From: an uncultured archaeon
Lineage (GTDB): Archaea > Thermoproteota > Nitrososphaeria > Nitrososphaerales > Gagatemarchaeaceae
Assembly: GCA_963799775.1 (NCBI GenBank)
Contig: CAWCYD010000003.1
Coordinates: 1,664,001-1,728,000, forward strand
DNA length: 64,000 nucleotides
Direction of reading: 5' to 3'
This document shows positions 1 through 12,895 of this stretch, one piece after another. The notes beneath the pieces are model-generated. The model did no database searches and was not told the origin of the DNA. It saw nothing but the letters and a program-made list of their open reading frames with translations. Position 1 is the first letter of the stretch, and every line of letters starts with the position of its first letter. The position numbers and the translations under genes were made by a program.

Positions 1-416
1 ATCACGACTGAAAACCCGTTCTTTTTCAGGTAGTTTGCAAACTTGGCCACCGTCGTGGTCTTTCCCGTCCCGTTTATCCCCAAAAAGAGTATCTTGAACG
101 GCTCGCCCTTCTCCTTGCTCTGCCTCACCCTCTGCAGCACGTCGATGTCCCCCACTTGGGAGAATATCGAGAGCACCTCTCCACGGAGCTTCTCCTTCAC
201 CATGTCCTGGATGTCTTTGGACCGCTCCATCGAGACCCCCAGGAGCTGCTTCTTCAGGTCTGCCGTGACCTTCTCAACGACGTTTTGGGCGACGTCGCTC
301 TCCATCAGCGCGAGCTGGAAGTTGAAGAGGGAGTCGTCGAGGTCATTATCAGAGAGCTTCTTCTCCGAGACGGCTTTCGCGAGTGAGGAGAAAGCCCCCT
401 TTAGCTTCTCAAACAT
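1..416 (-). CDS. ftsY: Signal recognition particle receptor FtsY, N-terminal part (runs off the window)
   Basis: Manual translation from the ATG at 416 gives MFEKLKGAFSSLAKAVSEKKLSDNDLDDSL...ILFLGINGTGKTTTVAKFA, i.e. N domain plus G1 P-loop; ATG overlaps the prefoldin stop. Confidence 0.92.
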   Translation of the reverse strand, partial: MFEKLKGAFSSLAKAVSEKKLSDNDLDDSLFNFQLALMESDVAQNVVEKVTADLKKQLLGVSMERSKDIQDMVKEKLRGEVLSIFSQVGDIDVLQRVRQSKEKGEPFKILFLGINGTGKTTTVAKFANYLKKNGFSVV

Positions 417-864
417 TACTTTGGCTGACCTGGCTGCGCTGCCTGGTGCTCCTGCCTGTCGATGAAAGCCTGCAGGGCCCTGCGGTCCGACTCCAGCCTC
501 TGCGCGATCTGGTTCCTCTGCGAGAGGATGGTGATGATGTTCTCCTCGAGCTCCTTCGACCTGGTCTCCAGGCACCTTCTCCGCCTCCTCCCTCGTCTTC
601 TCGATGACGACGTTCGCGCCGACACCCATCAGGACCTTGTCCGACTTGGGCGGCGAGGCGCGGAGCAGGACGCCGGCTCCGACCGGGACCAGGAACCTCG
701 TCGGTGGAAGCGGAGCCGATGTCCTTGATTGTCTCTAGCGAGGCGCGGCTCTCGATGAGCATCCGCTCGAGGAGGCCCTGCCTGTTGGTCAATTCGTTGT
801 AAGTTGATTCTAACATCCTTGACTCCATGAGGAGCCTATTCATCCTCTCTTCTTCGGAACTCAA
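416..864 (-). CDS. pfdA: Prefoldin alpha subunit (apparent frameshifts near 600-690)
   Basis: Coiled-coil N-terminus; EVLVPVGAG...DKVLMGVGANVVIEK hairpin in an alternative frame; conserved eIF6-pfdA-ftsY order. Confidence 0.85.
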
Positions 865-910
865 GTTCGGAAGGAACGAACCCCTCGGGGCTTTTTAAGG
901 TGAGTGCGGC

Positions 911-1577
911 TCAGACCTTCAGGGCGCGGGTAAGGAAGACCAGCTCAGGTCCATGTCGTGAGATAGCCGGCCACCGCGTTCCTCGTGTTCGCGACGACCC
1001 CTGAAGCCGGGAAGGGTATCCCGCCGTTGACGGAGGAGGCGGAGACCTCGACGCCGAGCACCTTGCCGATCTCCTCCGCCTCTTGCTCGGTGCCGCGCGG
1101 CGAGACGGCCGCTCCGCTGTCGGTGGCGACCGTCATGGCGCCCACCTGCGCGAAGTCTCCGATCGTCATGACGCGGGCCTTGATTCCGAGAGCGGCCTCG
1201 ACCTGCGCGACGGCGTGCTGCTCGAGCACAGGAGAGACCACAGCTCCGTTGTCGTTTGCGGCCACCAGGTTCCCGATGGCGGTGAACCTCGACTCGAGCC
1301 GTGATACTTTGAGGCCCGTCTTGGACGAGATCTCCTCCATCTCAAAGTCCTCAGCCATGCGGGAGACGATGACACCCTTGTTGTTCATGGCGACCAGGGG
1401 CCCGAGCAGCCGGGTGCCGCCTATCGAGGTCGGGCAGGGCAACACCTCGAGGTCTGCCGCGATCTTCTCGACTTTGGTGCCGGCGACGCCCTTGGGGACC
1501 AGGACGGCGGTGTCGTTTGCCTTTAGGAAGATCCCGATGTTCGGACTTCGGTAAAGGTCTACGAGGTTTAGACCCAT
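911..1577 (-). CDS. eif6: Translation initiation factor 6 (frameshift near 950; true C-terminus GPELVFLTRALKV)
   Basis: SPNIGIFLKAN, TAIGNLVAANDNGAVVSP and SVNGG motifs; directly downstream of rpl31e. Confidence 0.93.
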
Positions 1578-1862
1578 TTAGGATGACGCTTCGGTGGGTG
1601 GCAGCCGGACCGAGACCACACCGTCCTCATCCCTCTCCATCTCGAGCTTGATGCGGCGAGGTGGATTTGTAATACCACGGGCCCACAGGAGCAGGTTGAC
1701 ATCCTCGTCTATCTTGACCTCGGTGGCCTTCATGTGGCGTGTGGTGAATTCGCGGATTATCCTGATTGCGACCTTGGTCCGCCTATACTTGGGCGCCTCG
1801 AAGGCCCGCCTCAGAGGGACCATGTGCACCCTCGTCAGTGGCTCGATGTTTGTTGAGGACAT
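1578..1862 (-). CDS. rpl31e: 50S ribosomal protein eL31
   Basis: RRTKVAIRIIREF...VKIDEDVNLLLWARGITNPPRRI signature. Confidence 0.95.
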   Translation of the reverse strand: MSSTNIEPLTRVHMVPLRRAFEAPKYRRTKVAIRIIREFTTRHMKATEVKIDEDVNLLLWARGITNPPRRIKLEMERDEDGVVSVRLPPTEASS

Positions 1863-1896
1863 ACTGGCTCTATCTCCCTATTTCTCGGCGCTATCT

Positions 1897-2055
1897 CTAC
1901 TTGAACCCGAGCTTCGTCCTTCTCCAGGTCCTGTGGTTCTTGTTCGCCCTTACCTTCCTGTTGGTCCTGGCGATGACCCAGGTGGGGATGGAATAGTTCT
2001 CCTTCCTCGCCTTCATCAGGCGGTTCTTCTTCGACGCGTCTTTGTTTCTTCCCAA
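1897..2055 (-). CDS. rpl39e: 50S ribosomal protein eL39 (52 aa, not in the ORF track)
   Basis: Manual translation MGRNKDASKKNRLMKARKENYSIPTWVIARTNRKVRANKNHRTWRRTKLGFK with TTG start; expected position upstream of rpl31e. Confidence 0.93.
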   Translation of the reverse strand: MGRNKDASKKNRLMKARKENYSIPTWVIARTNRKVRANKNHRTWRRTKLGFK

Positions 2056-2061
2056 GTCTCT

Positions 2062-2358
2062 CTATATCCTCCTGATCTTGAACTCTCTCTTCGCCGTCCC
2101 CTGGATGCTCGACAGGAGCTCCTTGAGCTGCTCGTCGTCGATCGTCCTCTTGAGCCTCCCCGATGAGGCGAGCTGGATGATGTACTCCTCAATCGCGTTT
2201 GCTACGTCGGGCTTGACCATCCTTACGTTGGTGAGGCGCTGCCTGGCCTCGGAGGTAAGTGCTATCCTCATCACGTTCTCGCGCATGGCACGCTGCTTGG
2301 AGGCGTCTTCCTGCGCCCCGGCTCTTGCCTGAACGTCCCTGTGCTGCTCGTCCATCAT
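2062..2358 (-). CDS. PDCD5-family dsDNA-binding protein
   Basis: LTSEARQRLTNVRMVKPDVANAIEEYIIQLASSG...IDDEQLKELL motif; conserved neighbour of rps19e. Confidence 0.9.
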   Translation of the reverse strand: MMDEQHRDVQARAGAQEDASKQRAMRENVMRIALTSEARQRLTNVRMVKPDVANAIEEYIIQLASSGRLKRTIDDEQLKELLSSIQGTAKREFKIRRI

Positions 2359-2362
2359 AGAA

Positions 2363-2818
2363 TCAACTATACCTTTCCAGTGCGGGGTTCTGCTTCACGA
2401 GTTCCTTAAAAATATCTTTGCTGACCTTGTCCAGAAGAGCCACGCCCTTGGGGGTGAGCACCCTCCCGGCGTTACCCTGCTTTGCGACGAGCTCCGCCTT
2501 CTCCAGCCCCTTCAGGATGTTCCTGATCGCCGAGCTTCCCGAGTCCCTGTGGTGCTTGGGGAAGTAGCCTAGCTGCTTGCTGCCCCCGTATGCAATCTCG
2601 AGTCTCTCGATGCCCACAGGCCCGCGCATGTACACCTTCCTCATGAGGGAGGCGGCCCTCACATACCACCAGTCCTGCCTCTGCGGCGGTCTATCGGCGT
2701 GGGAGCCTGTCTTCACGAAGGACGCCCAGGTGGGAGGCTCGATCTCCGGCACCCGCTTGAGATGCTCGGCGAGCGTTTCAATCAACTTGTCCGCTGGGAC
2801 GTCGTGTACTTTGACCAT
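2363..2818 (-). CDS. rps19e: 30S ribosomal protein eS19
   Basis: PTWASFVKTGSHADRPP...WWYVRAASLMRKVY signature. Confidence 0.96.
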   Translation of the reverse strand: MVKVHDVPADKLIETLAEHLKRVPEIEPPTWASFVKTGSHADRPPQRQDWWYVRAASLMRKVYMRGPVGIERLEIAYGGSKQLGYFPKHHRDSGSSAIRNILKGLEKAELVAKQGNAGRVLTPKGVALLDKVSKDIFKELVKQNPALERYS

Positions 2819-2870
2819 TCGTGCTCTCTTCTCCGGATTTGCAATTTGTCCAGCCCTCCCCCTTCAATAT

Positions 2871-3176
2871 TTAAGGCTGACCCAGCGATTTTCGGTTGAC
2901 GCGGCCGCAATTCGCGCAAGTCGTCAGGAGGAACCCCTTGACGACCCGGACCCTGGCGTTGACCCCGGGGACGATGAGCTCCTTGCACCCGTGGCAGTAG
3001 AACTTCTTGAGGTTCCAGCCGAACCTGACGTTGTACTTCAGCATGAGGTCCCTAGCGAGGGAGGCCTGCTGCTTGGCGAGGGGAAGGTCGTCCTTGGCCG
3101 TCGAGGTCGAGAGCTGGATCAGCGCCCTGGCGGCGGTCGCGGCCTGCATCTTGGCTTCACCCTTCTTCTTCCTCAA
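2871..3176 (-). CDS. rnp4: RNase P protein component 4 (Rpp21)
   Basis: Helical N-terminus, YCHGC...PGVNARVRV...TCANCG zinc ribbon; neighbour of rps19e. Confidence 0.88.
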   Translation of the reverse strand: MRKKKGEAKMQAATAARALIQLSTSTAKDDLPLAKQQASLARDLMLKYNVRFGWNLKKFYCHGCKELIVPGVNARVRVVKGFLLTTCANCGRVNRKSLGQP

Positions 3177-3250
3177 CGGCGGGATGGTCTCACTCGTCGC
3201 TCGCGCAACTGATTTATCGCGAGCCGAAAAGTCTTGCCTGACTTGTCTTC

Positions 3251-3917
3251 ATGCTCCACTTTGTGATTGGGGAAGCGGCGCTCGAGCTGATTCCGGAGGA
3301 GCTCTGGCGGGGCACCCTCGGTCAAGAGCGACGCGGCCCGGCGCGACCTCAGGCCCGGGGACATCCTACTTGACAGGAGCACCCACCACTCCGCAATGCT
3401 CAAGCTTCAAGACGGGTATCGACGGGGAAGGCCAGACCTCGTCCACCTGACTCTGCTCAGCGTGACTAGCACACCCCTTCACCAGGAAGGCAAGGCCCGG
3501 GTCTACATCCAGACGATCGACGGGAATTCTCTTGAGTTCGGCGAAGGGGCGCGCCCACCCAAGAGCTACGCGAGGTTTAGGAATCTCATGGAGAAGTTGC
3601 TTGCAGAGAAGCCTGAAGAGGGCCTCGTGAGGGTGAGCGAAGAGACACTCCCGGAGCTCCTGAGAAGGATAGGGACAGACGACGCCGTGGGACTGTCAGT
3701 TCAAGGTGCCTCCATGCCTCTCGAGTCTCTCGCAGGCGACCTTGTGCAAAGAAAGAACCCTGCTGTCGTGGTGGGAGGGTTCCCAAGGGGGCATTTTCTC
3801 ACGGGCGACCTGAAGGCCTTCGACAGGCTGGTGAGGATCGACCAGCGGGCGCTCGACGCGCATGTCGTGGCGGCACGGGTGGTCTACGAATTCGAGAAGG
3901 CTCTCCGCTCGAAGTGA
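3251..3917 (+). CDS. nep1: Nep1/Emg1 16S rRNA pseudouridine N1-methyltransferase (frameshift near 3310)
   Basis: MLHFVIGEAALELIPEE..., LLDRSTHHSAM, RRGRPDLVH, RPPKSYARF and VVGGFPRGHF SPOUT motifs. Confidence 0.92.
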
Positions 3918-3922
3918 TTACT

Positions 3923-3928
3923 AAAAAA
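3923..3928 (-). terminator. U-tract terminator for the minus-strand transcript
   Basis: A6 on + (U6 on -) just after the 3' strand of the terminal stem at 3931-3944. Confidence 0.55.
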
Positions 3929-4518
3929 GGGGGATATTCGGGGTCAGTGCTCGCGCGGTCGTCACGCTAAATCCCCTTGGAGGGGAGACGGTCTAGGACT
4001 TCAGCCGTTTCTAAGACACGTGCCGCCACTGTCTCATTCGTTGCATTAGCACCATGTTCAGTCCGACCTGCTCCACTGACGTCAGGCTTGTCAGAGGAAT
4101 ACAGGTATTCATTCCTCAAATGGTGCCAAGAGGCATCCGCACTCACGGCAAACGGATGGCCGCAAAGGCGCAGTCCACGGCAGAGGATTGCCAGAGAAGC
4201 AAGCCTGTCTCTGTCGTAGTCTACACCGCATTTGACGCACCTGCTCACAGCCCAAGTTGGGTGCTCTAATTTGCCACCGCAGACGGGACATTCGGATGAA
4301 GTCCCTCTTGGGTTCACGTAAAGGGTGCGATTTTGAGATTTGTAATCAATCATAGATTGGTAGAGTCGGTATGGCCACCGATTGAGATAGGTCCTCAACC
4401 GCTTGCCCTTCGGTTCTTCGTCGCTCCTTATCCCTTTGAGATTCTCGAAAATGAAAGACGCGCCGGAATAGGTTCTGACCATCTTGGTTGATAGCTTGTG
4501 AAGTGTATCTTTGATTCT

Positions 4519-4672
4519 CCCATGTCGTCGTGTTCTGCATATTTATGCTGGACGGAAGGGCATTCTCCCATTCGCTCTCTTTGGAGCATTGTGGCTTTCG
4601 CGGTAGCCTGTGGCCCAACCTGTTCCACGCGCTCTGAGGCGCAAGAACCTAACGGGCTCTAGCTCTTTTTGC
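4519..4672 (-). ncRNA. Putative IS110 bridge/seek RNA in the 3' non-coding end
   Basis: Contains ATTCTCCCAT (4562-4571), identical to the junction at 4514-4523, and ACCTGTTC (4618-4625), identical to the junction at 5695-5702; both include the CT core. Confidence 0.65.
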
Positions 4673-5648
4673 TCAGCCGTCCAGCCTGAAGGTCTGTTCC
4701 TCCTTCAGCATGATGTACATGGCCCGCATGAGCTTCCTCGCTGCGGCCACGATCGCCACCTTCTCGCCCCTCCTCTTCGCGAGCTCCACGTAGAATTTCG
4801 TTATCGAGGAGTCGCACCACCTCACGTGGACGCGCGTGCACTGGACCATTATCCAGTTCAGCATCACGCTCCTCGTCCTGTTGGGTGTCGAGTGGCTCTT
4901 GTCCGCCGACTGTCTCAACCCTGGCACGAGGCCTGCGTACGAGCAGAGGTGCTCGTGGTCGGCGAATCTGTTCACGTCTGCGATCTCGCTCGATATCAGG
5001 AGGGCCGAGTAGTGGGAGACGCCGGGTATCGTGACGAGGAGCTTCGCATACTTGTCCTGCAGGGCGACCCCCTTCACCTTCAGGTCGAGCTCCCCGATCT
5101 TCCCGTCCAGGAACTCGATGGTGTCCATGTAGTCGTCCACCGCGTCGATGTGGAGGGACCATCAGGAACTTCCTCCCTTCCCGCGTGAAGACGTCGCCCT
5201 CGTGCTTCACCCATCGCTTCGCGAGCTCCGCCTTCACCTTGCTCTTGAACCCGGTGCGCGTCTCGACGAGGTGATGCCTCCTCCTGACGAGGTCCCTGAC
5301 CTCCCTGGTCTTCTCGTCCGGCACGTAGGACTCGGGTATCATGTCCGCCCTCAGCAGGTCCACCAGCGTCCTCGCGTCGACCTTGTCCGTCTTCACCTTT
5401 GCGTAGGCGATGGCCTTCACCATCAGCGGATGCGCGACCTTCACGTCGTATCCCTTCTCCTTCAGCACGTCGCGGATGTGCTGATGGTTGTACCCGGACT
5501 CCATGACGACGCTCGCATTTGTGCCGTCGAGGAATTCCAGTATCTTTTCTTCGTCCTTCGCCACCTTCGACTCCCTCATCACCTTTCCAGCGTCGTCCTT
5601 GAGGACGCACTGTATCGATTTCTCGTGCAGGTCTAGCGCGGCATACAT
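4673..5648 (-). CDS. IS110 transposase/recombinase (frameshift near 5155)
   Basis: DEDD residues in ALDLHEK, VMES and KTDKVDA; C-terminal LLVTIPGV...SYAGLVPGLRQSA and KVAIVAAARKL. Confidence 0.93.
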
Positions 5649-6591
5649 GCTAGTGGCTGTGGCTTTCCTTCGCCTTATCTTCTGCGAGCATCCCACCTGT
5701 TCATTTGTCTACCTCTCGTCTGCCTAAGCTTCTTCTCCCTCTTTTGCCGGTTGTTGACATGAAGCTGAATCGCCCTTCTCCTTCTTGAGAAGTCGTTCTG
5801 GATTCGGACAATGGTCGCAATTGTCTTTGTGTTGACCTGTTCTAGCTTCGTCCCGTCAGTTTCCAACCGCGCCACAGTCGAGTCTACTGTTGCGAAATTC
5901 AAGTCTGAAGCAACTAACTCTAGCCCGAGAGCCTTGTTCGCGATGCCAACCGCAAAAGTCAGACAGACTTTGCGATCGGTAATTAGAAGTTCAGCAGGTC
6001 GGCCTGATGAATATCCCAAGAAGTGCTTGTTCTTGGTGTTCATTGCAATCCAAGTGTACTTCTTAGGTTGAAGAGTCACTCTGACTCGGCTATCGACAAC
6101 CTTCATCAGTTCTCCATCAATTCTCATTGCAAGCTTCTTCACTTCAGGGATTCTTACTTCCCCGTGGTTGTTCTTTCTATGTGACCTTAGTATTGCCACT
6201 GCAGCTCTGCAAACTGGGTTGATGTGGTGCCTCGCATAGTCATACTTTGTGTAGAACCAGCCCTTTATCTCCCTCCTTAACTGAATAGGCGACGGCATTC
6301 TGCCTTCTCGAATCGCGTATCTAGATGCCTCGACTAGCGAGTACTTGATTGCCTCCTGCATATCTCTGAGATAGGCGAGCAGAAGATCGTCGGGTTCGTA
6401 ATACCAGGAGATTGTTCTCTTTTCTCCGCTAGATTTCCAGGGGTGTATTTGTATTAACCTCCGTCGATGCTTTCTAACAGGCTCAGGCCCTATAAGCACC
6501 CATTTCATGCCATGGGTTACTTTCGTGGCATTGTGGAGGATTGTTACCCGCCCAAACCCTCAATATCCCGAATAATTCCCCCTCTCATCGT

Positions 6592-6687
6592 GCGGTCGTC
6601 GTCCAGTCTGGTCTAACGTCTATAGACGTGCCAAAAGGACTTCAGCCCTCCAAGCTGGCAACCAGGGTTCAAATCCCTGCGACCGCA
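6592..6687 (+). tRNA. tRNA-Gly (anticodon read as TCC) with a 21-nt D-loop BHB intron at 6615-6635
   Basis: Acceptor GCGGTCG/CGACCGC plus A73; D stem GTCC/GGAC; BHB motif TGGT-CTA-ACGTCTATAGACGT-GCCA-AAA; anticodon stem TCAGC/GCTGG with loop CCTCCAA; T arm CAGGG-TTCAAAT-CCCTG. Confidence 0.88.
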
Positions 6688-6793
6688 CACTTACGATTAG
6701 AACCCTTGGCGTCCAAATCGCTCGAAGCGGTAAGAAGACGATTTGCTGTTGCGAGTCTCTAAAATAGCCCCTGTGCCCTAATGAAATTGGGCC

Positions 6794-8470
6794 GTGGTAA
6801 GGCAGAGATGGCTCGCATTCGCGACTGTTATCGTCGCAGCACTAATCCTAGGAGTCGCTCTTGAAATCATCAATCCACCGCCTAGTCATCAAACCGGCAG
6901 CAGTTCGATCTCCAGCATAGCCACGGCGAACTTGATTCCTACCTCGACTACATCCTCAATTCAATCTTCTTCTTCGGCGACGAGGCCCAACGTGAACTCT
7001 GCAACAACCAGCACGACCGAAACGACCTCCGCAACTCCGCCCTTGTGGACCTACTCGAGCAATGGAACGATCAACTCAATCTCTATGAGTGGCAAAGGCG
7101 AGTACACTGCAGTGGGAGTAGGTTATGGGGAGACCGGTGGAGCGGTCCTCCTTTTCGATAGGGGCGGCGACCTCCTCTGGCAGTATCAAACCGACATGAT
7201 AATTACGCATGTCGCAATTTCGGACAACGGCTCCCATATCGTGGCGACTGGGTTCCAATACCCGCCTACCCTTCCGAGCATCCTGTCCAAGGCCGCAACA
7301 GCGATCTACGCGCTCGACTCGGACGGAAGCGTAGCTTGGACTCGAACTGCATCTAGTGCGCGAGACCTCTCTTTCGAGGGGGCAATATCCTCGGATGGGC
7401 TCCTAGTGGCAGTTGCCAGTCCCGATGCTTCCCTTGCTGTGTTGGATTGGCAAGGTCAGGTACTCTGGAATGACTCTGCCCCCGTTGCGAATGCTCCAGT
7501 GGTTTTTCAGAACGGAAGCCTCTTCGTCGACGGCACCAATGGGACTTCGGTCTTCGGGCCTAGCGGTAATTTATTGTGGACGGACAACGGAGCGAATAAC
7601 GTCTGGTCGGGTGGTGTTGCGATAACGCCAACTGGATACTTGGTGGCGACGTCTTACGATGCTGGGGACAACAATCCGGGTATGATCATGCTTCTCTCAG
7701 GTAATGGTACCCTCTTGTGGGAACATACCGACGAGAGCGGGGCTTACTCTGCAGCAGTGCTTCCGGATGGGTCTTCCGTCGCTTTTACAGCCGCCGAGGG
7801 GCGAGTTCTGTTTTTCAGCCGGAATGGGACTCTCCTTGGCGATCTCACTACCCCTTCTGATTATCCGAGTGTTTTTCCAGCTCCGAAGGACAGCTTCCTC
7901 GTCGGCGGTGGACACAGCAGCGGACTGTGGCTCTTCAATTCCACTGGGGGGCAAACGTGGAGCTATCCTCTGAAGGATGTCGGCACGGTATCGATTTCGA
8001 GTGACGCCAATTTTGCGGCCGCGTCGAACGGCACTGGCGCGCTCGCTCTAGAACGCCAAAAGGCTCCTCTGAGCACCCTTTACTTCTTCAGTATGTCGAT
8101 GGCAACGGTGATGAATCCATTACACAAGGTGACTTTCCAGCAGGTAAGGTATTGCAACCAATACAACATCCTACCTTGGGCAGTAACGCTCGAGGGGATT
8201 ACCCAAGTCCAACCGCATAATCAGACCCTCCCGCTTCCGTCTAATACATTCTCCACCGTGGTTCCGGACCAGAACCTAACGCGCATTAACTTCGATGTCC
8301 TTTCTGGGACTTACAACTACACGATCATCGGTGGGGCACCTCCGGGTGGCGAGCTTTACGTGGGCAACGGGTACCAGAGTGGAACAGTTATCGTGAATGG
8401 CTCTGATGTTACCGTGAGCGTTGGGGTACAGCTCAGCTTCACGTGCACCTCATCAACCAAAGCTCCGTAA
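6794..8470 (+). CDS. Secreted or anchored beta-propeller (WD40/PQQ-like) protein with Ser/Thr linker and C-terminal surface domain
   Basis: N-terminal hydrophobic helix, S/T-rich stalk, repeated 'GxxLW' and 'AISSDG' blades. Confidence 0.75.
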   Translation: MVRQRWLAFATVIVAALILGVALEIINPPPSHQTGSSSISSIATANLIPTSTTSSIQSSSSATRPNVNSATTSTTETTSATPPLWTYSSNGTINSISMSGKGEYTAVGVGYGETGGAVLLFDRGGDLLWQYQTDMIITHVAISDNGSHIVATGFQYPPTLPSILSKAATAIYALDSDGSVAWTRTASSARDLSFEGAISSDGLLVAVASPDASLAVLDWQGQVLWNDSAPVANAPVVFQNGSLFVDGTNGTSVFGPSGNLLWTDNGANNVWSGGVAITPTGYLVATSYDAGDNNPGMIMLLSGNGTLLWEHTDESGAYSAAVLPDGSSVAFTAAEGRVLFFSRNGTLLGDLTTPSDYPSVFPAPKDSFLVGGGHSSGLWLFNSTGGQTWSYPLKDVGTVSISSDANFAAASNGTGALALERQKAPLSTLYFFSMSMATVMNPLHKVTFQQVRYCNQYNILPWAVTLEGITQVQPHNQTLPLPSNTFSTVVPDQNLTRINFDVLSGTYNYTIIGGAPPGGELYVGNGYQSGTVIVNGSDVTVSVGVQLSFTCTSSTKAP

Positions 8471-8589
8471 TGAACCAACGGGATGCTATGGGAAGCCCCA
8501 CCGATTTGAACGCAAACCTTCAAATTCGCTGCGACCGCACAGTTCAAACTCATTAGACGCCTGCTTTGACCTCGGAAGTCCCGGCTGCG

Positions 8590-8961
8590 CTAGTTTCCGC
8601 CGTTATGATGGCGACTGTGATGGTCGTAGTTCGCTGCGTGCGAACCGCGTCTTTGGAGGGTGAAGAGCAATGCGGCACCGAGACCGACCATCGCGAGACC
8701 GACGAGGCCCCATGCGGCACCTGGATTGATTACCTCGCTCAGGTAAGTGACTAGGCCGATGAGCGAGAAGATGACCCCCGCGGAGACCGCCACCGCCCCC
8801 AGGAGGCCGATGGCCATCGCCTTGACGGCCCTTCGGACGGTCTTGTCGACGAAGACCTCCACGTCGCGCTTCAGGACGTCCGCGTAGTCGTCGACGCCTT
8901 CCTTCACGTGGTCAAACACTTGGTCTACGATTTGTTGGACGGCCTTGGAGACGAACGACAA
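8590..8961 (-). CDS. YqjE/phage-holin-like membrane protein
   Basis: Amphipathic N-terminus plus two TM helices; follows an ElaB-like gene. Confidence 0.6.
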   Translation of the reverse strand: MSFVSKAVQQIVDQVFDHVKEGVDDYADVLKRDVEVFVDKTVRRAVKAMAIGLLGAVAVSAGVIFSLIGLVTYLSEVINPGAAWGLVGLAMVGLGAALLFTLQRRGSHAANYDHHSRHHNGGN

Positions 8962-8969
8962 CCGTCAGA

Positions 8970-9296
8970 CTACTCTTTGCTCTTTCGCCCAAGGATTACG
9001 CCTAGAATGACACCTGCGAGCACTCCTGTTCCGAGCGCATATCCTACCGCGGTCAGAGGCTTCTCCCGGATGGCGTCCCTGCCCGGCTCGACGTACTCGT
9101 CAATATGCTTGAGCAGGTCTGAAAGCCTCTCCTCGAGCTCGCTCTTGAGAACGTCAAGCGACTCCTCGGCGCTGGCCATCCCCTTTCCACTCCCAATCTC
9201 TGTTTGAATGTCATGTATTCGGCGCTCAAAGTCCTTCTTCAGGCCTTTGACGGCATCGTCTAGTGACTGCTCCTTTCCATTGGTTCTTGATGCCAA
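8970..9296 (-). CDS. ElaB/YqjD (DUF883)-like tail-anchored protein
   Basis: Coiled N-terminus and IREKPLTAVGYALGTGVLAGVILG..RK C-terminal motif. Confidence 0.75.
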   Translation of the reverse strand: MASRTNGKEQSLDDAVKGLKKDFERRIHDIQTEIGSGKGMASAEESLDVLKSELEERLSDLLKHIDEYVEPGRDAIREKPLTAVGYALGTGVLAGVILGVILGRKSKE

Positions 9297-9526
9297 GATT
9301 CTTCGATAGGAAGAGCGTGCGGTTCGTATTTAATGGTGACAGGACATTCTTCTGGTCGAGTCATCCATAGCGACTCTTGGCTCGGCCGTTCTGCCCCGAT
9401 CAGACGCTCAGCTCCCCAGATGATTGCTGGATGCGAGTGGTCGTATCCGGGCGTTCGGGCTACATTCTACGTCGGTTCAAGAGCAGACTCCATATCATCG
9501 ATTCATAGCATGCTTGGGATACTCTA

Positions 9527-10363
9527 TTGGGTCTGAATCCATCCACTATATCGATGTCTATGTTCCCGAAGGCTCCTAGTGTAAAACGCGCCCTTGATGT
9601 ATTCGTGATGTTTGTTCTGCTGGCTTTCGCCGTGGCGATAATCCCTCTGAGCGCCGCGCATGCCCAGACGCAGCCCAGCGTTACGGTAAACTCCACCGAC
9701 ATGAACTCCAATCCGATCACAGGCTACTATGTCGTCCTGTCCGGTTCGGGCGGGAATCAGGCGGCGACAGGATTCACTCCGACGAATTTTAGCGTCATCG
9801 CTGGAGCCTCATATAGCGTCCAGGCGGACAGCTACGGGAATTGCACTTTCAATCACTGGTCCGGTGGAGTGAAGAACAACCCCATGTCGTTCACCGCGAC
9901 AAGTGGGACCACTTCGTTCACTGCGGCGTACAACTGCAACAGCACCGGTAGCGGAGGAGGAGGCGGCAGCGCGACCACAGGCGAGAGCGGCGCAGGACTG
10001 GGGACCATAACCATCTACGATCACAGGGCCCCCCAGTCTGACTGGGCGTCCTGCTTCGCGACGGTGTGCAACGCCGGCACGGGCCCGGGAGCGGCCATGT
10101 GGGTGACGCTCTATGACTCGTCCGGGTCAGTGGTGGCAACTGGGTTCTCCAACGAGAACGGGCTCACGTTCTCCGGGCTCAACCCCTCTGCTACGTACTA
10201 CCTCTATCCGGCGGACTGCGACCAATGCCACACCTCTACGCACGACGTGTTGTTCAACAACTGGGGCACTGGGAGCGACAACACCAGGCCGTTGGCCGTG
10301 GTTGCCAACGGGAGCTTCGTGGATGCCTGGTATATCTGCACGAACGGCTGCGGCGGCGTCTAG
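9527..10363 (+). CDS. Secreted Cys-containing protein with two beta-sandwich repeats
   Basis: Signal peptide ending AHA; VTVNSTDMNSNPITGYY...YGNCTFNHWS repeat also present in 28698-30251. True start probably near 9554-9560. Confidence 0.7.
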   Translation: MGLNPSTISMSMFPKAPSVKRALDVFVMFVLLAFAVAIIPLSAAHAQTQPSVTVNSTDMNSNPITGYYVVLSGSGGNQAATGFTPTNFSVIAGASYSVQADSYGNCTFNHWSGGVKNNPMSFTATSGTTSFTAAYNCNSTGSGGGGGSATTGESGAGLGTITIYDHRAPQSDWASCFATVCNAGTGPGAAMWVTLYDSSGSVVATGFSNENGLTFSGLNPSATYYLYPADCDQCHTSTHDVLFNNWGTGSDNTRPLAVVANGSFVDAWYICTNGCGGV

Positions 10364-10480
10364 ACACGAGCCGGCATGCCTGACTTCTGTTTCAGGTCGT
10401 CGCCACACGCGGGACGCGACCAAGCCTTGGCCTACGCGTGAGCGGGCAGCTCTCCGACATTAAATAACGAAAGAATCTGA

Positions 10481-10918
10481 GTGACTCCGGACGCCAGCAG
10501 GATATTCGGGGACGCCGCTCGTGCAGAAGCTCGGAATCAAGCAAGGAGACGTGCTCGCTATTCTCCATGCCCCTCAAGGTTACGATGCGGTCTTGGGGGA
10601 GCTCCCGGAAGATGTGACCGTGATTCGAGAGACGAAGGTCTCGTCGACGTCATCCAGCTCTTCGCGAGAAGCGAGGCGGATTTGAAAAGAGAATTCGCAG
10701 AGGCAAAGGCCAGCCTCAAGCAAGCCGGGATGGTCTGGGTATGCTGGCCGAAGAAGTCGTCGAAGATGCAGACCGACCTGAGCGACAATGTGGTGAGAAA
10801 GATCGGGTTGGCGGGCGGGTTGGTCGACGTCAAGGTCTGCGCCATCGACGAGGACTGGTCTGGTCTGAAATTTGTAAGAAGAACGAAAGATAGACGTGCT
10901 TCTTCTATCGGTGCTTAA
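10481..10918 (+). CDS. DUF3052-family protein (frameshift)
   Basis: AGYSGTPLVQKLGIK in an alternative frame; WVCWPKKSS...GLVDVKVCAIDEDWSGLKFV. Confidence 0.8.
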   Translation: MTPDASRIFGDAARAEARNQARRRARYSPCPSRLRCGLGGAPGRCDRDSRDEGLVDVIQLFARSEADLKREFAEAKASLKQAGMVWVCWPKKSSKMQTDLSDNVVRKIGLAGGLVDVKVCAIDEDWSGLKFVRRTKDRRASSIGA

Positions 10919-10942
10919 TTATCGGGCGCGCCCTCTTGGTCG

Positions 10943-11281
10943 ATGAGCCGACCCGACCCGGGCAAGCCCCTCGTCACAATCTCCGTCTTCCTGTTCGGGA
11001 AGCCGGCGTGGGAGATCGACGGTCTGGAGGGGTCACCGGTGGACCTCCAGCTCTTGAGCGCGATAGCGATGTGTGGGGAGGAGCTCGGCAAGAGGCTGGC
11101 GAGGGCAGCCGAGCTGGGTAGGAGGCTCGTGGCGAACGGCTGGGAGGGCTACGGCCTCCTCTACGCACTGGAGTTCTACAAGACGGTGGCTCTGAAGGAC
11201 GCTGAGGACGAGTTGCGCGCCATGCGCATAGAGCCGGACGAGGTCTCCCTCAGGGAGGAGGTCGAGGAGCCGGAAGACTAG
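10943..11281 (+). CDS. Hypothetical protein
   Basis: 112-aa ORF with host-like codon usage and acidic tail. Confidence 0.6.
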   Translation: MSRPDPGKPLVTISVFLFGKPAWEIDGLEGSPVDLQLLSAIAMCGEELGKRLARAAELGRRLVANGWEGYGLLYALEFYKTVALKDAEDELRAMRIEPDEVSLREEVEEPED

Positions 11282-11844
11282 GACTTCGCCGGCTGCGGGA
11301 TCTTGTTGAACTCCCTCCTCATCTTTGCAAGGTCGCCTGACTTTGTGCTGAACGCGAGCTCGGTCGCGAGTGTGGCAAGGAAGAACAGGAGGCCCAGCAC
11401 GACGGCAGGAAGCCTGAAGCCCCCCGCCACGAAGACGTAGAGAAGCTCGACCCCGACCAAGGCGTTGCTGACAATCACCCCGGCCCCGAAGATGTACCCT
11501 CTCTTGCGAGCTGGCAGCGCAGCCATCTCTTCTTTCCTCAACTTCGTGCCTATGGTAGGGACGAGTCCCCCGATCGTGCTCATGGGCTTCATCTTGAGCT
11601 TGCGGAAATCGCTCCTACCCACGAAGAAGTACTCTGTCCGGACACCCGCGGCTCGAGCCACGAAGAGGTGTCCCAGCGGGTGGCTGGAGAAGAAGATCAG
11701 CCCCATCGCCACGAGCATGAGCAAGGCTTGGATGATCGCATTGCCCGACCGGCTTGCTAAGATGAGTAGGAGCGCGGAGAGAATGGCAGCGATGAGCAGC
11801 ACTGACGACGCGACCGCAGGGCCGAGCCTGGTCGCATGCTTCAT
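11278..11844 (-). CDS. Membrane protein, distantly M50-peptidase-like
   Basis: Four TM helices; HPLGH where HExxH would be expected; C-terminal SGD. Confidence 0.55.
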   Translation of the reverse strand: MKHATRLGPAVASSVLLIAAILSALLLILASRSGNAIIQALLMLVAMGLIFFSSHPLGHLFVARAAGVRTEYFFVGRSDFRKLKMKPMSTIGGLVPTIGTKLRKEEMAALPARKRGYIFGAGVIVSNALVGVELLYVFVAGGFRLPAVVLGLLFFLATLATELAFSTKSGDLAKMRREFNKIPQPAKS

Positions 11845-11896
11845 TTGGTGGACCCTTACGAATCGTTTGAATAACTAGCGCCTAAAAGGGTTCCAG

Positions 11897-12895
11897 ATGG
11901 GGAAAGGCCGCGCCGTCCTCCTCGTGGCGCAGAGCTTCAACAAGAGGGAGGAACTGGACCCGTTGAAGCGCTACGCGGACATCTATTGGCTCGAGGACTT
12001 AGGCCCCGAGGAGAAGGGGCGAGTCCTGCCTCTGGTGGACGCGGTCTACTCGCACGGGTGGCCCAAGGCCTTCGACCCTGGGACGGTCTCCAAGATGAAG
12101 CGCCTGCGTTTCATCCAAGCTGGGAACGCAGGAGTGAACACCTTCCGCTTCGACCTGCTCGACAAGAGAGTCATGATCTGCAGTAACGCCGGGAGCTACT
12201 CTGACGAGGTCGCCGAGTTCGCGATAGGCTTCATGCTCGCGGCGGGAAAGAGCATACTGGTCTTCGACAGGCAGCTCAGGGCTGGGGCCTAGGCGCGCAA
12301 GAGGCTGGACGACCTCGGGCGCGAGGTGGCGTACTTCAGAGGGAAGGTAATCGGGATAGTGGGGTATGGAGGGATAGGCAAGTCGACGGCGAGGATAGCC
12401 AAATCCCTCGGCATGGATGTGCTGGCGTTCGGGCGGCACACGGTCAAGGAGAAAGGAGTGAAGTCCCTCTCGGGAAAGGACGGCCTGGCGAAGCTTCTCA
12501 GGGAGTCGGACGTGGTGGTCCTTGCCGTCCCGTTGACAAAGGAGACGAGGGGCATGATCGGGAAGGAGCAGCTTGCGATGATGAAGCCGAGGGCGATATT
12601 GGTGAACGTCGCGCGAGGGGAGGTCGTCCAGAAGGAAGCCGTCTACGAGCACCTCGTGAGGAACCCGGGCTTCTTCTACGCGACGGATGTCTGGTGGCCG
12701 GACAAGGACGGGTTCGAGACCTTCTCGCCAGACCTCCCTTTTCTCGAGCTCGAGAACTTCGCCGGTTCCCCTCACGCCTCCGGCCCGAGCGCCATACTCA
12801 GTGGCGGAGTGGCGAAGGGGGTGGTGGAGAACCTGACGAGACACTTCAAGGGCCTGCCGCCGAAGAACGTCGTGGACAGGTCCGAGTACGTCTAG
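11897..12895 (+). CDS. D-isomer-specific 2-hydroxyacid dehydrogenase, interrupted by an in-frame TAG at 12290-12292
   Basis: GIVGYGGIG, VPLTKETRGMI, NVARG, DVW and SPH motifs; both ORF halves are in the same frame. Confidence 0.85.

Follow-up and report, generated by a model that had tools for sequence, protein, structure and literature searches.

A decayed, transposase-less IS607-type tnpB element at a broken tRNA-Gly(UCC) gene of an uncultured archaeon

The window analysed here, the whole of a 64,000-nucleotide (nt) stretch of contig CAWCYD010000003.1 (assembly GCA_963799775.1, positions 1,664,001 to 1,728,000), comes from an uncultured archaeon of the Gagatemarchaeaceae and carries, near its start, a minus-strand tnpB gene that lies between a 5' fragment of a tRNA-Gly(UCC) gene (copy B) and a complete, intron-bearing tRNA-Gly(UCC) gene (copy A). 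We consider it quite probable that this arrangement descends from an element of the IS607 family of insertion sequences (IS), now decayed and without its transposase, that entered the tRNA gene; that the tRNA was reconstituted, perhaps by an imported allele; and that an IS110-family element struck tnpB later. An earlier note on this DNA had raised the possibility of a domesticated RNA-guided system. Our verdict is that the element is an ordinary decayed one in an instructive setting, and not a domesticated one.

Two minus-strand pieces of open reading frame (ORF), 5675..6508 and 3967..4482, are the halves of one tnpB gene (6508..3967). Pfam assigns the C-terminal half to Cas12f1-like_TNB (PF07282; E 1.7e-10, 41.3 bits, cut-off 26.3), and TIGR01766 recognises it too (39.7 bits, cut-off 32). 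The N-terminal half, which has no match in Pfam or NCBIfam, shares 47-62% identity with full-length relatives. A profile built from the clade matches solved TnpB and Cas12f chains across the RuvC and zinc-finger region (8hr5, 4.6e-9; the ISDra2 TnpB chains 8bf8 and 8exa, 2e-6). The motifs SDLNF, FENL, CPVCG, CVKCG and DYDRD are all found in the repaired frame, and the RuvC-like D, E and D align with the catalytic positions of 8hr5 and 9b0l, in agreement with the catalytic residues and zinc finger first read from the sequence. The split gene is a genuine tnpB that has kept the RuvC D/E/D residues and the zinc finger; it is not an intact gene, being broken at 4516-5700 by the IS110-family insertion. 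Its G+C content is about 49%, against 59% for the genome. In many relatives (L032, L025 of genome G007, L059, L068-L070) the third RuvC position is N and not D (DYDRN, against DYDRD here), and one DYDRN copy, in G007, still has a tnpA; such relatives may be nuclease-impaired, or may use the neighbouring D instead.

The first start of the frame is ATG 6508 and its stop lies at 3967, as had been read before, but the frame is continuous only once the 1.18-kb IS110-family element has been removed in silico. The start conserved in relatives is about 20 codons further downstream, where this copy has ATA, and the canonical start is lost. At the other end, the last 18 codons run past the right end of the element into the tRNA remnant, whereas relatives stop before or at the right-end tip. 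No tnpA is present among the ORFs of window positions 2500-12000, and no Resolvase-family gene occurs in the organism's own assembly (81.7% complete), which confirms that tnpB stands without a tnpA nearby; the same assembly contains 24 loci with a TnpB-type TNB domain, yet 0 Resolvase-family genes.

The insertion that breaks tnpB encodes the Pfam domains DEDD_Tnp_IS110 (2e-19) and Transposase_20 (1.1e-16) and has two more copies in the genome at 99.7% identity; one extra A frameshifts the transposase of the window's copy. Excision in silico of 4516-5695 (1180 bp) yields a single 453-codon tnpB frame that is colinear with relatives and contains all three RuvC motifs and both CxxC pairs. Excising the minimal 1185 bp leaves tnpB frameshifted, and so the exact joint between the IS110-family element and tnpB is uncertain by a few bases. 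The IS110-family element has a long non-coding part (~155 nt) 3' of its transposase gene, and in the copy on contig C2 (226490-228028) a 180-nt 3' part is repeated three times in tandem. The same 5 nt (ACAGG) precede all three copies and may be a target core and not part of the element.

The nearest relatives of this tnpB in the same genus are two copies in G007 and one broken copy in G017, with more from other archaeal metagenome-assembled genomes and from metagenomes; viral contigs gave no match to a relative of this TnpB. Even the closest are only 60-72% identical, so that the ends of the element have no near-identical copy with which they could be compared at the DNA level. At locus L062 the ORF before tnpB scores 178.5 bits with the model for IS607 family transposases (NF033518; cut-off 110), and at L025 (G007) and L071 a gene with a recombinase-like C-terminus, recognised by eye, stands just before tnpB; of the two G007 copies, one keeps this recombinase-like gene and the other has lost it. 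The serine-recombinase TnpA that belongs beside tnpB in such elements is thus found in relatives, and neither in this copy nor in its assembly. Right ends stop at ...ACGG in all 17 elements, the window's included, whereas the 16 relatives have 16 different, unrelated right-end flanks. The earlier note had named two findings that would together tell against its proposal, close relatives at many unrelated sites with normal ends and an omegaRNA that excludes 3990-4006, and the first of these is what we see, 16 of 16 relatives being at unrelated sites. Where several copies define its place, the left end comes after AGG, GGG or GGGG.

According to PMC13565253, IS607 elements have GG at their ends, integrate behind a GG and use AGGAG or GAGGG as the target-adjacent motif (TAM) of their TnpB. 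Because the L062 transposase, the ACGG right ends and the G-rich left flanks fit these traits, we assign the clade, on sequence characters, to the IS607 type and not to the IS605 type first suggested. The window's element itself shows the (C)GG end, common to 17 of 17 right ends, and insertion after the GG of a G-rich motif, its target being GAGGG. Membership of the IS200/IS605 family, which requires a Y1 HUH TnpA and an AT-rich target or TAM, is ruled out by the IS607-type TnpA of the relatives and by their G-rich targets. NCBIfam models score the clade at 61-83 bits for guided_TnpB (cut-off 100) and at no more than 26.5 for IS607_TnpB (cut-off 350).

With the IS607 elements treated in PMC13565253, such as that of the Clostridium botulinum IStron TnpB, the element shares a serine-recombinase tnpA (here in relatives), a CGG 3' end, insertion after GG in GAGGG, a tnpB whose 3' end is covered by a structured RNA, and a right flank in the position of a guide. 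It differs from them in belonging to an archaeal clade of very divergent sequence, with no Rfam match at E<=1, and the window's copy differs further in having no tnpA and no recognisable left end and in being split by another IS. With ISDra2 TnpB of the IS200/IS605 family (PDB 8bf8, 8exa, 8h1j) it has in common the RuvC and zinc-finger core (E 2e-6) and an omegaRNA overlapping the 3' end of the gene, but the Y1 (HUH) TnpA, AT-rich TAM and hairpin ends of ISDra2 do not apply to it.

Over the last ~225-240 nt before the right-end tip, nucleotide conservation among the 17 elements is far above that of the proteins. Their alignment has 58 consensus pairs in this region, 21 of them with compensatory changes, as well as many invariant columns; folded alone, the window's copy gives a z of -2.08. 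As in other TnpB elements, this conserved structured RNA overlaps the 3' end of the gene and ends at the right end of the element, and the covarying fold that reaches the tip is best read as the omegaRNA scaffold. Rfam returned no family match for the scaffold region at E<=1. The hexamer CTAATG (~4049), which had been paired with TGTTAG into a stem closing around the ORF, sits instead in a long-range helix of the scaffold (alignment columns 116-124 paired with 199-207), where 7 of 9 pairs carry compensatory changes, and the proposed closing stem finds no support.

A TnpB takes as its guide whatever DNA flanks the right end of its element. At the predicted guide position, the first 15 nt (4004..3990), directly after the right-end tip, are antisense to tRNA-Gly positions ~17-31, and the next 5 nt are relic intron. 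The tRNA-complementary segment noticed earlier does, then, occupy the guide position. Since insertion into a tRNA gene puts tRNA sequence at the right flank, its complementarity would be an ordinary result of insertion and not a designed specificity.

The same right flank identifies the site of insertion. In copy B, an acceptor-stem piece of 9 nt is followed by what is left of a D-loop intron (26 nt, 3964-3989) and by 17 nt that begin in the D-loop and reach the first anticodon-loop base, part of the D-arm having been lost. The 17 nt (3990-4006) are identical to the tRNA-Gly sequence as spliced in silico, and the 26 nt are similar to the D-loop intron found in G006 and G013. The upstream flank of copy B, together with the gene for Nep1, aligns with the tRNA-Gly locus of G011, G017, G006 and G022, and by eye with that of G013; window positions 1-3914 are colinear with three relatives, and synteny is back near 10,445. 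Because flank, Nep1, synteny and relic intron all match same-genus loci, we take copy B for the remains of the ancestral tRNA-Gly gene after Nep1. It ends exactly at the right-end tip, whose GG (4006-4005) complements the CC at tRNA positions 32-33. In the uninterrupted gene, read antisense, GAGGG stands directly before the same 15 nt that here follow the tip (6 of 22 same-genus genomes searched); the intact alleles of these six genomes read GAGGG and then CTGAAGTCCTAGACC. The element therefore sits where an IS607 element would be expected to insert. Among 401 genomes of the order searched, the junction between right end and tRNA is found in this genome only, and all 8 same-genus tRNA-Gly loci inspected are without the insertion.

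Copy A is the only full tRNA-Gly(UCC) copy in the assembly. While the intron is in place, the gene escapes ARAGORN and Rfam or scores poorly with them (Rfam tRNA, only 21.1 bits); with the intron removed in silico, ARAGORN reports tRNA-Gly(tcc). In the minimum-energy fold of the precursor, two 3-nt bulges flank a 4-bp helix, so we predict an archaeal bulge-helix-bulge (BHB) tRNA intron whose splicing would join the exons into a cloverleaf. Genome G008 has an intron at nearly the same place, and the junction of the copy A intron has no match in viral contigs. The upstream region of copy A does not align with the tRNA-Gly flanks of G011, G017, G006 and G022, and has no counterpart in 40 relatives searched.

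The intron of the intact gene interrupts the matching target, as had been claimed: it starts 10 nt after GAGGG, and only 10 of the 15-20 guide positions match. It would on this account protect the working gene from a TnpB with this guide. The mismatch is not evidence of adaptation, because D-loop introns are common without tnpB (they occur at 2-3 positions in 7 of 8 same-genus tRNA-Gly genes inspected, with tnpB beside 0 of the 8 loci), because introns are the rule in this genome (ARAGORN finds only 18 intron-less tRNAs genome-wide, so most tRNA genes carry introns), and because it is an old idea, cited in the Discussion of PMC3293823, that integrating elements are kept out of tRNA genes by introns. 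Within the single genus (G006, G008, G011, G013, G016, G017, G020, G022), this one orthologous tRNA-Gly carries 1-3 introns at four or more positions, namely 2-3 D-loop sites and one variable-loop site, and intron turnover at it is fast.

The history that we favour would run as follows. An IS607-family tnpB with its omegaRNA inserted after the GG of GAGGG, antisense, within the anticodon-loop part of the ancestral gene for tRNA-Gly(UCC) behind Nep1; the displaced 5' part of the tRNA would thereby have become the right flank and hence the guide, and this fragment would have decayed since. The tRNA-Gly function would be supplied by the complete copy A at the other end of the element. Copy A is not a recent duplicate of copy B, since the introns and the upstream flanks of the two differ; its likeliest origin is another allele, brought in by recombination at the tRNA, as PMC3293823 proposes for the tRNA-Thr locus of Caldiarchaeum. 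Its intron would happen to split the TAM-adjacent target after 10 nt, giving a working gene without a guide match. Insertion of the IS110-family element into tnpB, which killed the gene, would be a later event. This genome, G011 and G017 each have different DNA behind the tRNA, which makes the locus a recombination hot spot. Window positions 6690-10445, which encode a beta-propeller surface protein and small membrane proteins, have no counterpart at the locus in G011, G017 or G020, each of which has different genes in their place.

Several observations weigh against this history. A comparison of 6380-6700 with the left ends of relatives by blastn-short and Smith-Waterman gave nothing above shuffled sequence (local scores of 14-17 against 16.3 +/- 2.4 for shuffles), and because both a left end and a tnpA are missing, a one-step insertion cannot explain the present structure. 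The 5' side of tnpB abuts a whole tRNA gene with its own upstream region, where a simple insertion predicts the 3' half of the tRNA. The omegaRNA and its guide are predicted by homology. Parts of the stretch occur in four public soil-metagenome runs and, among the runs listed, in no RNA run. The contigs of these four runs are short and revealed neither an empty site nor an intermediate allele of this strain: one of 276 nt is identical over 3724-3999, none spans copy A or the junctions of the right end and of the IS110-family element, and the two joints reported, with 24-25 nt on each side, are given no weight. ARAGORN, Rfam and T-loop screens, which we applied to related loci (below), can all miss intron-bearing tRNAs such as copy A. 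Of the two marks of an att-type tRNA reconstitution by an integrating element, a direct repeat of tRNA sequence flanks the insert (9 + 17 nt, with 12 nt contiguous), and an integrase or recombinase was found neither within the insert nor near it.

The missing left end and tnpA would be accounted for by a second route, which we hold to be possible but doubtful. It begins with two nearby tRNA-Gly(UCC) genes, the one proximal to Nep1 being hit by the element; a deletion or an IS-IS recombination would then have taken out the spacer and the 3' half of the hit gene along with the left end and tnpA, and so brought the second gene beside tnpB. The sequence GGGCGGG (~6549-6555, minus strand) precedes a stretch with the 9-nt motif ACGAAAGTA, which is found again, in subterminal position at the right end, in 6 of the 8 closest relatives, as would fit a left end at another G-rich site, and IS-mediated recombination is invoked for a comparable locus of Caldiarchaeum in PMC3293823. 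However, none of the 8 relatives inspected has two tRNA-Gly(UCC) genes at the locus, the similarity to left ends does not exceed that of shuffles, and the upstream region of copy A lacks a counterpart in the 40 relatives mentioned above. We weakly favour the import of a foreign allele, by recombination within the tRNA, over this second-gene route.

That the host keeps TnpB and its scaffold to cut intron-less tRNA-Gly alleles or the tRNA itself, with the intron as a shield for its own gene, is in our view very improbable. The retained D/E/D residues, the GAGGG and 15-nt match in the alleles of relatives and the intron that breaks this match in the resident gene are what such a function would call for. 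Yet tnpB is split by the IS110-family element and has lost its canonical start; the arrangement occurs in 1 of 401 genomes of the order and at 0 of 8 same-genus loci; the relatives are mobile, at 16 unrelated sites and some with tnpA; and D-loop introns sit in this tRNA in 7 of 8 same-genus genomes inspected, all 8 loci being free of a neighbouring tnpB, while most tRNA genes of this genome have introns too. TldR is reportedly a nuclease-dead, domesticated TnpB. Like TldR, the window's element is a TnpB relative without a transposase; unlike TldR, it has kept its catalytic residues, its locus is not conserved and its gene is disrupted.

The RNA antisense to the tRNA on which the earlier note had built survives in part, its 3' domain being the scaffold of the TnpB guide RNA, followed by the segment identical to spliced tRNA-Gly (3990-4006), and its 5' domain finding no support. 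We give almost no credence to the reading of the whole as a structured host RNA, antisense to tRNA-Gly, with an IS in a tolerant loop: a 6-bp hairpin at 6504-6523 and a well-folded 3' region speak for it, but the 5' part (171 nt, 6430-6600, minus strand) folds no better than shuffles (z +0.35; 132 of 200 shuffles fold as well or better), which makes the ACCCAT/ATGGGT hairpin unremarkable, and has no homologue in the 40 relatives searched, and the folded 3' part accompanies tnpB, in conserved form, at unrelated loci and so belongs to the element and not to the host.

The closest parallel that we know of is the tRNA-Thr(GGU) locus of Caldiarchaeum subterraneum, where Sugahara et al. 2012 (PMC3293823) describe a 5' tRNA fragment, an insert of ~1.9 kb and a reconstituted tRNA with an extra intron. 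The locus studied here matches this architecture, down to a 5' tRNA fragment that keeps the ancestral upstream flank and a new 5' tRNA part that bears the extra intron. The Caldiarchaeum insert has several genomic copies and encodes an unclassified 271-aa protein, and the authors favoured a pNOB8-type integration; the insert here, by contrast, can be identified as a tnpB element of the IS607 type, and its right-end tip falls where the tRNA is broken. We also screened the surroundings of the relatives for tRNAs. ARAGORN found none in the 23 related loci scanned, Rfam (at gathering thresholds and at E<=1), run on 16 of those 23 loci, gave a single tRNA, ~780 nt from a right end, and a T-loop motif scan around the same 16 elements gave 3 matches in two loci (L064 and G017/L026), none of them supported by Rfam, while recovering the window's tRNA as a positive control. 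A literature search, most full texts lying beyond its coverage, found no title or abstract on a TnpB element that sits in an archaeal tRNA gene and is accompanied by a reconstituted copy with an intron.

Taken alone, the locus is a dead insertion sequence, and its value is that of a clean natural example, in which an RNA-guided transposon has its right-end tip at the exact base where a tRNA gene is broken, and TAM and target can be read in sister genomes. The working tRNA copy differs from the target by its intron only, which poses the question whether a BHB intron in a protospacer protects a tRNA from cutting by TnpB. Copy A could, as a long shot, be a resistance allele, TnpB homing into an essential single-copy tRNA having selected for an allele with an intron-split protospacer, which may have been imported together with the element. 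If this were true, RNA-guided transposon nucleases would be one force behind the gain and turnover of archaeal tRNA introns, and the old idea of introns guarding tRNA genes against mobile elements would acquire a concrete molecular form. The unexplained Caldiarchaeum architecture of tRNA fragment, insert and reconstituted tRNA gains a candidate class of agent.

Table 1. Features of the tnpB element and the two tRNA-Gly copies, in window coordinates.
Feature	Position	Strand	Basis or remarks
Ancestral tRNA-Gly upstream flank (A-rich box and spacer)	3918-3954	+	Directly after the Nep1 gene
Copy B, putative 5' remnant of ancestral tRNA-Gly(UCC)	3955-4006	+	Sequence match to tRNA; relic intron like G006, G013
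tnpB C-terminal part	3967..4515	-	RuvC-II E, zinc finger, RuvC-III D; Pfam, TIGR01766 and structure-profile matches
Guide position of omegaRNA (predicted)	3985..4004	-	Deduced from right-end tip
OmegaRNA scaffold (putative)	4005..4228	-	Ends at right-end tip ...AACGG (GG = 4006-4005); 17-element alignment
IS110-family insertion	4516-5700	-	1.18 kb; ends from 3-copy alignment
tnpB N-terminal part	5696..6508	-	47-62% identity to relatives; RuvC-I motif SDLNF
Spacer between copy A and tnpB	6509-6591	-	Copy A upstream region, possibly degenerate left end
Copy A, complete tRNA-Gly(UCC)	6592-6687	+	Sole full-length genome match; ARAGORN after intron removal
D-loop intron of copy A (predicted)	6615-6635	+	21 nt; bulge-helix-bulge geometry
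GAGGG (6650..6646) and 10 guide-matching nt (6645..6636)	6636-6650	-	In copy A; GAGGG is an IS607 TnpB TAM in PMC13565253

Three smaller observations concern the tRNA copies and their flanks. The spacer box upstream of copy B (3928-3942, plus strand) has an inverted counterpart equally far upstream of copy A (6562-6583, minus strand), with word matches of 7-8 nt in a pattern of G-run, ATATT and G-run; it could be due to chance, a symmetric protein site or a trace of rearrangement. The copy A intron (6616-6636, minus strand) resembles the right-end tip (4005-4025, minus strand) in the pattern GGCAC..GTCT.TAGA, with a local score of 16 that 88 of 12,794 window tiles (0.7%) also reach and that is a hint only; the idea it suggests is that some short tRNA introns may be relics of IS ends. 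The anticodon loop of tRNA-Gly(UCC), CCUCCAA (window 6648-6654), has a C at position 33, where to our knowledge U is nearly universal in tRNAs; this loop is shared by the genus and several families of the order and is conserved in at least 11 genomes (loci L005-L009, L012, L015, L052-L054, L057).

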